A stretch of 64,000 nt of DNA from Burkholderiales bacterium (GCA_030684405.1 JAUXYA010000032.1:238764-302763); one strand, 5' to 3'; counted from the first letter of the stretch, positions 2,131 through 55,248 are shown. Notes: generated by a model not told the origin, from the letters alone. Made by a program: numbers and translations.

Positions 2131-2148
2131 TTTAAAAACAAATACTTA
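2131..2148 (+). repeat. AT-rich 18-mer motif copy f (TTTAAAAACAAATACTTA)
   Basis: Member of the WWTAAAAWCAA-N4-TTA family. Its first 14 nt are an exact inverted copy of 41841-41854. It ends 5 nt before the atpG ATG, which has no obvious SD. Confidence 0.7.
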
Positions 2149-2152
2149 AGAT

Positions 2153-3016
2153 ATGGCTGGTTCGAAGGAAATCCGCACCAAGATCAAGAGCGTGCAGAAC
2201 ACGCGCAAGATCACCAAGGCGATGGAAATGGTCGCGGCCTCGAAAATGCGCCGCGCGCAGGAACGCATGCGCACGTCGCGTCCGTACAGCGAGAGGATCC
2301 GCAACGTCGCCGCGCACATCAGCCATGCCAATCCGGAGTATCGCCATCCCTTCCTGGTGGACCGCAATTCGGGCAATCGCATCGGCCTGATCGTGGTCAC
2401 CACCGACAAGGGCCTCTGCGGCGGCTTGAATACCAATGCCCTGCGCCTGGCCTTGAACAAGATCAAGGAATGGGAAGCCCAGGGTGAAGAAATCGAAGTC
2501 TGCGCGCTGGGCAACAAGGGTCTGGGTTTCATGCAACGCCTCGGCGCCACAGTCACCTCGCAGGTGATTGGTCTCGGCGACAAGCCGCACATGGATAAAC
2601 TGATCGGCGCGGTGAAGATCATGCTCGACGGTTATACCCAGGACCGATTTGATCGGCTGATGATCATCTACACCCGTTTCATCAATACGATGAAGCAGGA
2701 AGCAGTGGTGGAACAACTGCTGCCGCTGTCGGGTGACGCGCTGGGCGCACCGGAAGGTTCCTGGGATTACATCTACGAGCCGGATCCCAAGGTTGTGCTC
2801 GACCAGGTGCTGACGCGTTATGTCGAGACCCTGATTTACCAGGGTGTGGCCGAGAACATGGCTTCCGAGCAGTCGGCGCGGATGGTGGCAATGAAAGCCG
2901 CCTCGGACAATGCCGGCAAGGTCATTGAAGAATTGACACTGATTTACAACAAGACTCGACAGGCCTCGATTACCAAGGAGCTGTCGGAGATCGTCGCCGG
3001 CGCGGCAGCGGTCTGA
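2153..3016 (+). CDS. atpG: F0F1 ATP synthase subunit gamma
   Basis: 287-aa ORF between the alpha and beta subunits, with typical gamma N- and C-terminal helices (…[15 protein letters not shown]). Confidence 0.95.
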
Positions 3017-3049
3017 TTGTTTGACGACATTTTGATTTAGGGATTGACC

Positions 3050-4450
3050 ATGAGCCAGGGAAAAATCGTTCAGTGCATCGGCGCGGTGATCGACGTCGAG
3101 TTTGCCCGTGACCAGATGCCGCATATCTATGACGCGCTGACAATGGATGGCAGCGAACTGACGCTGGAAGTGCAGCAGCAGCTCGGCGACGGTATCGTCC
3201 GCACCATCGCGCTGGGTTCCTCCGACGGCCTGCGCCGCGGGATGATGGTGACCAACACCAAAGCGCCGATCATGGTGCCGGTCGGCCCGAAAACGCTGGG
3301 ACGCATCATGGATGTGCTCGGCCGTCCGATCGACGAAGTCGGCCCCATCGGATCCGACAAGACGATGTCGATTCACCGCAAGGCGCCGACCTACGAAGAG
3401 CTGTCGCCATCGACCGACCTGCTGGAAACCGGCATCAAGGTGATTGATCTGGTCTGCCCGTTTGCCAAGGGCGGCAAGGTCGGCCTGTTTGGCGGCGCAG
3501 GTGTCGGGAAGACCGTGAACCTGCTGGAACTGATCAACAACATCGCCAAGGCACACTCGGGCCTCTCGGTGTTCGCCGGCGTCGGTGAGCGCACCCGTGA
3601 AGGTAATGATTTTTATCACGAGATGATGGATGCCGGCGTCGTCAACAAGGATGATCTGTCGAAATCGAAAGTGGCAATGGTCTATGGCCAGATGAACGAG
3701 CCCCCCGGCAACCGGCTGCGCGTGGCGCTGACCGGACTGACCATGGCCGAAGCCTTCCGCGATGAAGGTCGCGACGTGTTGTTCTTCGTCGACAACATTT
3801 ACCGCTACACGCTGGCCGGCACCGAAGTATCGGCGCTGCTCGGCCGGATGCCGTCGGCCGTGGGTTACCAGCCGACGCTGGCCGAGGAAATGGGTCGCCT
3901 GCAGGAACGCATCACGTCCACCAAGACCGGCTCGATCACCTCGATCCAGGCCGTTTACGTGCCGGCGGATGACCTGACCGATCCCTCGCCCGCCACCACC
4001 TTCGGCCACCTCGATTCGACCGTGGTGCTGTCGCGCGACATCGCTTCGCTGGGCATCTATCCCGCCGTTGATCCCCTGGATTCGACCTCGCGCCAGCTTG
4101 ACCCGCATGTCGTTGGCGAAGAACACTACAACACTGCGCGCGCGGTGCAGGCTACTTTGCAGCGTTACAAGGAACTGCGCGACATCATCGCAATTCTGGG
4201 CATGGACGAACTGTCGCCGGAAGACAAGCTGGCGGTGTCCCGCGCGCGCAAAATCCAGCGCTTCCTGTCGCAGCCGTTCAGCGTCGCCGAGGTGTTCACC
4301 GGCTCGCCGGGCAAATACGTGTCGCTGAAAGACACCATCAAGGGCTTCAAGATGATCGTCAGCGGCGAGTGCGATGCGCTGCCGGAGCAGGCCTTCTATA
4401 TGGTCGGCGGCATCGAAGAGGCGTTCGAGAAGGCGAAGACGCTGCAGTAA
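3050..4450 (+). CDS. atpD: F0F1 ATP synthase subunit beta
   Basis: Walker A GGAGVGKT and full-length F1-beta similarity. ATG at 3050 is preferred over the in-frame TTG at 3044. Confidence 0.97.
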
Positions 4451-4468
4451 CGGGCAAGGAAACCGGCA

Positions 4469-4900
4469 ATGGCTGAAGCAGTTCATACCATGCACGTTGA
4501 TGTCGTCAGCGCGGAAGAGCAGATCTATTCCGGCGAGGCGGAGTTCGTCGTGCTGCCGGGCGAAGCCGGCGAACTCGGCATCTATCCGCGGCATACCCCG
4601 CTGATCACTCGCATCCGCCCTGGCGAAGTGCGTATCAAGCCGGCGGGCGGCGGTGCCGAAGAGTTAATTTTCGTCGCCGGGGGCATACTTGAGGTGCAGC
4701 CAAAGGTAGTCACTGTGCTGGCTGACACCGCAATCCGCGGTGCCGACCTCGACGAAGCCAAGGCCACTGAGGCGCTGAAGCAGGCGGAAGAGGCGCGCAA
4801 GAATGCCCAGGGCAAGCAGGAAGTCGCTACCGTCGAAGCCGAACTGGCGATGCTGGCGGCTCAGCTGGCTGCCATTCGCAAGCTGCGCGGCAAACGCTGA
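4469..4900 (+). CDS. atpC: F0F1 ATP synthase subunit epsilon
   Basis: 143-aa ORF, last gene of the F1 block, with an epsilon-like sequence. Confidence 0.93.
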
Positions 4901-54168: not shown

Positions 54169-54425
54169 TAAATCTGCCGGGATGTGTTTCCGGCTGGCCA
54201 GGCTTAAAGTGCGGCTTCGATCGGGTGCGCACGGCCATGCCTGATCGCCGAAGAAGACAGATGTTCCGCGCCCTGCTGCTGTGGAGCGAGCCAACGCGAG
54301 AAACGCAGGGTGCGCCGACGCTCAAAGACTATGGGAAAATCGATTTCAAGGCCTACAAACCGCCAGTAGACTGAAGACGCCCGAGGCAATCGGGCGTGGT
54401 CGACAAACAGCAGGAGGGATCCAGC

Positions 54426-54665
54426 ATGTTTGCAATTGTCAGCAAATCCGATGGTTTCCCGGTCAGCCGCAGCGTCGGCGGAGGGCAACCCGACCTCGTG
54501 GTGACCTGGACTTCGGGCGACAAGGCGAAAGCCTTCCTCGCCACCAAAGGCATCGAAGCCGAGTATTCAGTGGTGCCTCTCACCGAGGGTGCGTTGGCCG
54601 GCATGGCGAAGGCGTTGGGCTGTGATGCCGATGCCATCGCCTTTGATGCTTATCCCGAAAAATAA
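54426..54665 (+). CDS. Small hypothetical protein (79 aa)
   Basis: ORF with strong SD AGGAGGG upstream of the ATG at 54426. I recognise no family, and 167-257-nt non-coding gaps lie on both sides. Confidence 0.4.
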   Translation: MFAIVSKSDGFPVSRSVGGGQPDLVVTWTSGDKAKAFLATKGIEAEYSVVPLTEGALAGMAKALGCDADAIAFDAYPEK

Positions 54666-54832
54666 CCGTCCATGTCGCGCACGTCGGCGCCTTGACGTAC
54701 CCACCGGCTTCCGCGCGCTGCGTGTCAATCGCTCGTTCTTTGCCTGGCCTGATCCTGCCGGGCTTTCTGGCACGCCGGTGACCGGCCGTCGGCTACAATG
54801 CCAGTGACTCAATCAGGCAAGGATGGATGTGA

Positions 54833-55228
54833 ATGGAAACGCTGCATACCGGCATGACACTCACCGTTGAACGCGAGGTCACCGAGGCGATGACCACGCA
54901 GCGTGGCGAATACAAGATTTTTTCCACGCCGAACATGGTGCAGTTCTGCGAAAGTGCCGCCGGACAACTGGTGGCGCCGCATCTCAAGCCGGATCAGGGA
55001 CAGGTCGGCATGGTGGTGACCATCCGCCACATGGGGCCGACCCCGATGGGCAAACGTGTGCGCGCCGAAGTGGAACTCACCGGCATTGACCGGCGCCGCC
55101 TGAGTTTCAAGATCAGGGTTTTCGATGACGTGGAGCAGGTCGGTGAATGCGATCACGACCGTTTCGTCGTCGATCTCGACAAGTATCAGGCGAAGCTCAA
55201 ACGGAAAATTGAGAGCTCAAGCAATTAA
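54833..55228 (+). CDS. Hot-dog fold thioesterase (FlK / fluoroacetyl-CoA-thioesterase-like family)
   Basis: 131 aa. The pattern …FSTPNMVQFCESAA…GMVVTIRHMGPTP…RRRLSFKIRVFD…G…HDRFVV… resembles FlK-type thioesterases. Confidence 0.65.
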   Translation: METLHTGMTLTVEREVTEAMTTQRGEYKIFSTPNMVQFCESAAGQLVAPHLKPDQGQVGMVVTIRHMGPTPMGKRVRAEVELTGIDRRRLSFKIRVFDDVEQVGECDHDRFVVDLDKYQAKLKRKIESSSN

Positions 55229-55230
55229 TA

Positions 55231-55248
55231 TAAGTACTTGATTTTATT
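55231..55248 (-). repeat. AT-rich 18-mer motif copy e (minus strand reads AATAAAATCAAGTACTTA)
   Basis: Full WATCAANNNNTTR match in the 22-nt convergent gap between the thioesterase and the DMT transporter. Confidence 0.7.

Follow-up and report, generated by a model that had tools for sequence, protein, structure and literature searches.

The 64,000-nucleotide stretch of a Burkholderiales bacterium analysed here (hereafter the window) is GC-rich, with 56-66% G+C, and scattered through it are eight copies of an A/T-rich 18-mer, WWTAAAAWCAA-N4-TTA, which is a real, selected motif. The copies are probably high-affinity binding sites, of about 30 bp each, for integration host factor (IHF); thereby the motif would most likely be a known kind of element met in a new organism, where its density and conservation are higher than usual. 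IHF is a heterodimer of IhfA and IhfB belonging to the DNABII family; it reads (A/T)ATCAA and TTR through the minor groove, has two prolines that enter at AA/TT steps 9 bp from each other, is assisted by a 5' A-tract, and bends the DNA by approximately 160 degrees.

The pattern WWTAAAAWCAANNNNTTA, which is the 18-mer given above, has seven exact matches in the window, and the eighth copy, at 45683, has two mismatches, as against 0.00 exact matches and 0.25 matches with at most two mismatches expected from dinucleotide shuffles, none of which reached the observed counts. Because the window is GC-rich, a control for local A/T islands, defined as places where an 18-mer holds at least 14 A/T, was added, and 8 of the 28 islands in the window were found to carry the motif. 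Furthermore, the looser pattern W5-WCAA-N4-TTR has nine matches in the window and none when it is reversed but not complemented. All eight copies had been listed in the initial annotation, and the pattern scan of the window returns the same coordinates and strands throughout; a 15-mer common to 7257 and 21776, a 14-mer common in inverted orientation to 2131-2144 and 41841-41854, and the exact occurrence of WATCAANNNNTTR in four copies were likewise correctly reported there. The truncated relatives it had seen at 26911 and 47369 are in turn excluded from the copies, since they have only the 9-mer TTCAATAAA in common with them and lack CAA-N4-TTR; the 9-mer falls in the first codons of pilQ (antisense) and of the biotin carboxylase gene (MFNKVLV), respectively. 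A match at 33967, GTATTTACAAGGTGTTA, was also dropped, having a weak A-tract, a position only 440 bp from copy 5 and no support from orthologues. A literature search with literal strings (ATCAATGAGTTA and related) gave irrelevant matches only. The copies are listed below with their settings, genes having been assigned from Pfam and from the called genes of near-identical and related contigs, as G+C at third codon positions alone did not discriminate genes.

Copy 1, 2131..2148, plus strand: TTTAAAAACAAATACTTA, in the 43-bp atpA-atpG spacer, ending 4 bp before the atpG start codon.
Copy 2, 7254..7271, plus strand: AATAAAATCAATGGGTTA, within glmS on the sense strand, codons N K I N G L.
Copy 3, 14419..14436, plus strand: AATAAAAACAATGAGTTA, between hemE and priA, about 160 bp upstream of the latter.
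Copy 4, 21773..21790, plus strand: TTTAAAATCAATGGGTTA, on the strand opposite to gltB, some 30 bp upstream of its start codon.
Copy 5, 34410..34427, plus strand: AATAAAATCAATGAGTTA, within engB/yihA, antisense to codons R N S L I L L.
Copy 6, 41837..41854, minus strand: TTTAAAAACAAATAGTTA, in the 105-bp spacer between a biotin-lipoyl carrier gene and the carboxyltransferase gene at 41876.
Copy 7, 45683..45700, minus strand: TTTTAAAACAAATAGGTA, degenerate, with GTA in place of TTR, in the spacer between a CoA-transferase gene and a second carboxyltransferase gene.
Copy 8, 55231..55248, minus strand: AATAAAATCAAGTACTTA, filling the 22-bp gap between two convergent stop codons.
Ninth copy, 4.8 kb to the left of the window, minus strand: AATAAAATCAATGGCTTG, within mnmG.
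Possible weak extra copy, 59429..59443, minus strand: AAAAAATTCAATGGTTTG, one mismatch to WATCAA, which may be due to chance.

The settings are mixed and comprise promoter regions, operon-internal spacers, one convergent gap and three coding sequences, in the latter case on either strand. The glmS copy is flanked by A/T-rich codons on both sides (ATA TTC ... GTG ATA), a single weak sigma-70-like match accompanies the priA copy when this is read as part of a promoter, the biotin-lipoyl carrier gene beside copy 6 encodes 73 amino acids (41549-41770, plus strand), and the genes converging on copy 8 are those of a thioesterase (plus strand) and an EamA transporter (minus strand). The weak match coincides in part with the opening codons (M K K F N G L I) of a gene on the minus strand.

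The canonical IHF site consists of WATCAA with TTR 4 bp to its 3' side, two dinucleotides, usually AA, which lie 9 bp apart and are the points of proline intercalation, and a run of four to six A in the 5' half (PMC1874591). Compared element by element with this description, the core (A/T)A(A/T)CAA is found in all eight copies, four having the exact WATCAA and the other four AAACAA, that is, T to A at one position, and TTR follows 4 bp 3' of the core in seven, the exception being 45683 (GTA). An AA or TT step is located 9 bp upstream of the core AA in every window copy. Five copies contain CAATAAAAWCAA, in which two CAA are exactly 9 bp apart (CAA-N6-CAA), and four (2131, 21773, 41837 and 45683) have TT at the upstream kink position, as in phage lambda H'. 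The 5' flank from -12 to -1 is 79% A/T, with a run of at least four A in half of the copies. A site for a nucleoid-associated protein was among the roles originally suggested for the motif, and it is this suggestion, specifically in the form of IHF, that has gained support, since the four canonical elements are present and the evolutionary footprint, described in the following, fits WATCAA-N4-TTR.

Copies are kept at orthologous positions in relatives of 74-85% nucleotide identity (L204-L206). The footprint is most clearly seen in engB, for which five relatives with 95-74% identical EngB were compared. The window and L204-L207, together five lineages, share the codons TTG ATT TTA TTG (L I L L); just 26 of 130 (20%) amino-acid-invariant degenerate codon columns are identical across all five, and the four codons account for 15%, 25%, 2% and 15%, respectively, of the usage for their amino acids. 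The block CAATAAAATCAA, which includes ATCAA, is invariant over the five lineages, while the synonymous positions falling in N4 position 1 (A/G/T), in N4 position 4 and in the R of TTR vary (TGAG, CGAG, AGAG, TGAA; TTA/TTG). A footprint of this kind, in which the core, the kink steps and TTR are constrained and N4 only loosely so, is what one would expect an IHF-type site under selection to show.

Other copies have orthologues as well. The atpA-atpG copy is kept as TTTAAAAACAGTCACTTA in L122, though the remainder of the spacer has diverged, and in the copy upstream of priA, L121 retains TCAATAAAAACAA while the right half has become ATGT-TTG, whereby CAA-N4-TTR is still met between flanks containing indels. 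Copy 6 has orthologues in L204, L205 and L206 (two mismatches in L206) and is degenerate in L208; copy 7 is represented by good copies at the orthologous junction in L205 and L206 and has been lost in L204, the window itself having an adjoining 2.3-kb two-gene insertion. Among 80 glmS loci sampled from metagenomes, the glmS copy is found only in the two closest relatives, L121 (GlmS 96% identical) and L122 (90%), both of which retain the A/T-rich codons ATA TTC AAT AAA ATC AAT GGN TTA GTG ATA, and it is absent in 78 of 78 relatives at 77% identity or less, in which the variable linker has GC-rich codons. The copy upstream of gltB is kept as CTTAAAATCAAATGGTTG even in L208, the most distant relative examined. 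In this lineage (L208:15070-16476, EngB 74% identical) pilM is split into two open reading frames (ORFs), pilNOPQ are absent and aroK is directly next; the engB copy is broken and the spacer copies are degenerate.

The 20-mer TCAATAAAAWCAATGRGTTA, with TGRG as N4, was furthermore scanned for in one genome per species and in viral contigs. It has at least 118 genome matches in alpha-, beta-, gamma- and delta-proteobacteria and in a few other phyla, and among the matches listed there is mostly one per genome, with unrelated flanks. The viral contigs contain 103 matches, compared with 0 for the reversed (non-complemented) 20-mer and 5 when the left TCAAT is scrambled to ATACT; when other N4 are placed in the same 20-mer frame, ATAS gives 55 matches, GRGT 32 and GYGA 0. 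Both the preference in N4 and the left CAA thus belong to the word in general, and neither is specific to a lineage. The conservation of N4 had initially been taken to go beyond IHF binding, yet as a lineage-specific signal it does not hold up, because N4 drifts between orthologues (TGAG, CGAG, AGAG, TGAA, ATGT, TGGT) and because the preference for TGRG and ATAS seen in viruses is general. In 186 unique genome and viral matches, the upstream flank, which the search did not constrain, is A-rich at -2 to -10 (A = 0.4-0.59), and this places the A-tract where lambda H' has it.

The surroundings of the 20-mer are also of the kind typical of IHF. In an orthologous Pseudomonas locus it is found in six species just upstream of a TGGCAT-N5-CTGCA sigma-54 promoter, and a Vibrio contig and a Halieaceae contig have a similar arrangement with a sigma-54-like promoter. 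In the Pseudomonas loci (L021, L037, L069, L106, L113 and L119) the sigma-54-type promoter, TGGCATGCGCTCTGCA, drives a small unknown ORF that is followed by genes for a DUF1328-like membrane peptide and an Ivy-like lysozyme inhibitor, both identified by eye from translations. About 12 of the 118 genome matches listed lie 0-20 bp from the 3' end of a tRNA or from a tRNA fragment, which is far above expectation. The exact 20-mer starts 0-4 bp past the 3' end of tRNA genes (Gln, Ser, Arg, Met, Lys) in Bartonella, SAR116, Tepidiphilus and Legionella, the tRNA-adjacent loci being L007, L016, L032, L067, L078, L081, L098, L110 and L115. In Desulfamplus, a lake Deltaproteobacteria metagenome-assembled genome (MAG), Parabeggiatoa and Mariprofundus, the 20-mer is found inside longer repeats with common flanks (L023/L052/L117; L030/L103/L107; L080/L089/L118; L025, an inverted pair), so that in those taxa, in contrast to the window, repeated or mobile elements carry it.

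In summary of these likenesses, the copies share with lambda attP H' and canonical IHF sites the core, TTR, the AA/TT kinks spaced by 9 bp, the placement of an A-rich 5' flank and an extent of about 30 bp, and they are alike in setting too, since the word occurs at sigma-54 promoters, at tRNA-adjacent att-like positions, in phage genomes and upstream of gltB. Either orientation is used and many copies lie outside promoters, as is also the case in E. coli chromatin immunoprecipitation sequencing. They differ however from canonical sites in that the centre, CAATAAAA, is strongly conserved and N4 is biased to NNRS (TGRG, ATAS), in that copies are held in essential genes by rare codons, and in a density far above that of other GC-rich proteobacteria.

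With regard to density, the strict pattern is found 7 times in the 64-kb window as against 3 times in the 904 kb of the 80 glmS loci. With the looser pattern, members of the clade have 0.5-1.9 copies per 10 kb, the reversed control giving essentially none, and 71 glmS loci of other taxa with G+C of at least 0.55 have 2 copies in 757 kb, so that the high density is a property of the clade, all examined DNA of which is located within about 75 kb of the origin. Some other GC-rich Burkholderiales MAGs among the genome matches listed likewise have several copies per 8 kb. In E. coli, approximately 1042 IHF-bound regions have been found in 4.6 Mb, and less than 10% of IHF motifs are upstream of operons (PMC3333857); the density and location of the sites in the clade are within this range. 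When the mnmG copy is included, the nine copies are separated by gaps of 3.8-12.6 kb, and compared with uniform placement the probability of a minimum gap as large is 0.0075 and that of a coefficient of variation as small is 0.003, both calculated post hoc. Since the even spacing was noticed only afterwards and depends on which weak matches are admitted, it is to be regarded as a lead only, and in other motif-rich lineages the copies are 43 bp to 2 kb apart.

Several observations speak against IHF. That IHF is the binding protein, and indeed that the copies are bound at all, is something we infer from their sequence, and the window and the clade loci contain no DNABII (ihfA/ihfB) gene signature, its presence in the host being assumed from taxonomy. 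The invariant 12-nt block CAATAAAATCAA exceeds the classical WATCAA in length, and the NNRS preference in N4 falls outside the textbook consensus. Other GC-rich proteobacteria, which also have IHF, have almost no such sites across the corresponding housekeeping regions, namely 2 in 757 kb, and IHF alone thus does not explain why this clade has so many. Finally, a tyrosine integrase gene adjoins only 2 of the 10 tRNA-adjacent copies that were checked, and the reading of such copies as att sites is thus borne out for part of them.

Some of these points could be accommodated if a different or additional protein, such as a clade-specific DNABII paralogue or another nucleoid protein, were to read the longer word (T)CAATAAAAWCAA-NNRS-TTA, the sites then being evenly spaced anchors that organise the origin-proximal chromosome. 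The 12-nt length of the invariant block, a density at least 35-fold above that of other GC-rich taxa with IHF, a spacing of the nine copies more even than uniform (P about 0.003-0.008, post hoc) and the location of all the clade loci examined near the origin are all in agreement with this notion. We nevertheless find it rather unlikely, since phages and distant taxa prefer the long word just as strongly and the recognition is therefore not clade-specific, since copies are as close as 43 bp to 2 kb in other motif-rich lineages, and since there is no candidate protein in hand and nothing that requires one.

The initial annotation had also mentioned a DNA-uptake-type signal, by which the copies would be of the same type as the DNA uptake sequence (DUS) of Neisseria or the uptake signal sequence (USS) of Pasteurellaceae and would have been spread by the uptake bias of type IV pili combined with recombination. 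Such sequences are likewise short over-represented words, enriched in one lineage, that occur on both strands, within genes as well as between convergent ones, and with rather even spacing, and the present motif has a clade-specific density, copies within genes at variable protein positions and even spacing in the window, which also contains pilMNOPQ; furthermore, it is in L208, which lacks pilNOPQ, that the engB copy is broken and spacer copies are degenerate. Known uptake sequences occur however about once per kb, whereas there is about one copy per 7 kb here (74 kb surveyed), an approximately 7-fold lower density, and the motif is A/T-rich and degenerate instead of being a fixed 9-12-mer. 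The word is common in unrelated taxa, with over-representation in phages and in every class of proteobacteria, in settings typical of IHF, the pattern of constraint, with N4 free and TTA or TTG accepted, is that of IHF, and the inverted pairs that serve as terminators are not found in the window. In addition, L208 has lost pilNOPQ and yet retains the copy at gltB, and its carboxylase-cluster spacer still has one that can be recognised. An uptake signal is consequently unlikely, and in our estimation very much so.

Even less probable is that the copies are by-products of some other A/T-rich sequence, be it promoter UP or -10 elements, A/U-rich translation leaders or a family of miniature inverted-repeat transposable elements (MITEs) or repetitive extragenic palindromes (REPs). 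It is true that most copies are intergenic and that three are just upstream of start codons, that of atpG being without an obvious Shine-Dalgarno sequence, but other copies sit within genes, on one strand or the other, or separate convergent stop codons, the copies have either orientation relative to transcription, and the reversed pattern has 0 copies. The possibility of a MITE or REP, raised initially as one that could undo the motif, does not hold, as the flanks show no relation to each other, their pairwise identity being at the background level of 0.23-0.27 once 12 bp on each side are passed, no Rfam family is found at the copies, and these are orthologous between species. In being dispersed, repeated and intergenic they do resemble the RIP/RIB elements of E. 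coli, in which an IHF site is part of a REP or bacterial interspersed mosaic element, and the Correia elements of Neisseria, which are MITEs with an IHF site; the present motif has however no flanking palindromes, inverted repeats or common flank, and its copies have evolved in place and are orthologous between species.

The distribution of the copies on the two strands had finally been proposed to reflect a polar chromosome-organising signal, and of all the readings considered, a KOPS-like orienting signal that follows replication, with the strand switch at 35-41 kb marking a boundary, is the one in which we have the least faith. The observation as such is correct for the window, where all plus-strand copies, five in number, lie left of 35 kb and all minus-strand copies, three in number, right of 41 kb, but the switch does not coincide with any replication landmark. 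With a contig of a groundwater MAG (GCA_030680675.1) the window shares 99.8% identity, and the 0-10 kb to its left contain rpmH-rnpA-yidC-mnmE-mnmG-rsmG-parA-parB-atp; this gene order puts the replication origin region about 10 kb leftwards of the window, which accordingly belongs in its entirety to one replichore. In agreement with this, the cumulative GC skew rises across the whole window, the skew being positive throughout, and reveals no boundary at 35-41 kb. The next copy to the left, in mnmG, is moreover on the minus strand, so that the series reads -, +++++, ---, and a single replichore carries five plus and four minus copies. Since local transcription runs opposite to six of the eight copies, and since the genes reverse direction near 35 kb, the apparent switch is due to this antisense tendency or to chance; with the counts as they are, a perfect 5/3 split has a probability of 2/56, and it came to attention post hoc.

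Returning to IHF as the preferred reading, purifying selection would in this GC-rich Burkholderiales clade keep IHF-type sites about every 4-13 kb, and these would be placed in promoter regions (gltB, priA), in short operon spacers (atpA-atpG and the carboxylase cluster), between convergent genes, and within glmS, engB and mnmG, where rare A/T-rich codons would persist. Direct control by IHF is known for gltBDF of E. coli (PMC1784095), and this matches the window copy upstream of gltB. The gltB and priA sites may accordingly have a role in promoter architecture, and the intragenic and operon-internal copies a structural one in the nucleoid. It could further be imagined that this freshwater and groundwater clade keeps an array of super-consensus IHF-type sites, spaced by about 7 kb, as a nucleoid scaffold or as anchors for supercoil or origin domains, or, less likely, as a co-opted uptake signal, and that sites are written into essential genes by means of rare codons where there is no available spacer, but we consider such an array quite improbable.

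If the copies are indeed IHF sites, the window would provide an unusually clean natural footprint of IHF recognition, since a GC-rich genome leaves only the selected positions as A/T, and in the comparison of synonymous sites in engB the constrained and the free positions can be told apart base by base. It would also imply that intragenic IHF sites, which are usually dismissed as non-regulatory, can be under a purifying selection that holds codons such as TTA (2% of Leu codons). Two features are slightly above routine, namely the conservation within essential genes and the clade-specific density with its possibly regular spacing, and the latter raises the question of whether nucleoid architecture is encoded by dispersed high-affinity bending sites in some bacteria; apart from this question, the class of site is an ordinary one.

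A few minor observations concern the neighbourhood of individual copies. The sole Rfam match within the window is the anti-hemB RNA (RF02837, Burkholderia RNA 7; 66 bits) at 34059-34148 on the plus strand, in the hemB-engB interval. The atpG start (2149-2155) is 4 bp past copy 1 and has no recognisable Shine-Dalgarno sequence, the same being the case in L122, and the A-rich leader may thus matter for translation too. Two genes at 43465-45675, a 327-amino-acid ORF and a family III CoA-transferase, separate the two carboxyltransferase genes and are absent at that position in L204-L206; the motif copy adjoining them, at 45683, is the degenerate one. In the hemE-priA spacer (14258-14535), copy 14419 is flanked by two minus-strand DnaA boxes at 14340-14348 and 14494-14502, one being the only perfect DnaA box of the window (TTATCCACA) and the other having one mismatch, and L121 keeps both boxes together with the block CTAAGTCCTTG..TGTGCATAA. 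The boxes and the copy could constitute a DnaA-IHF regulatory module upstream of priA, approximately 24 kb from the origin.

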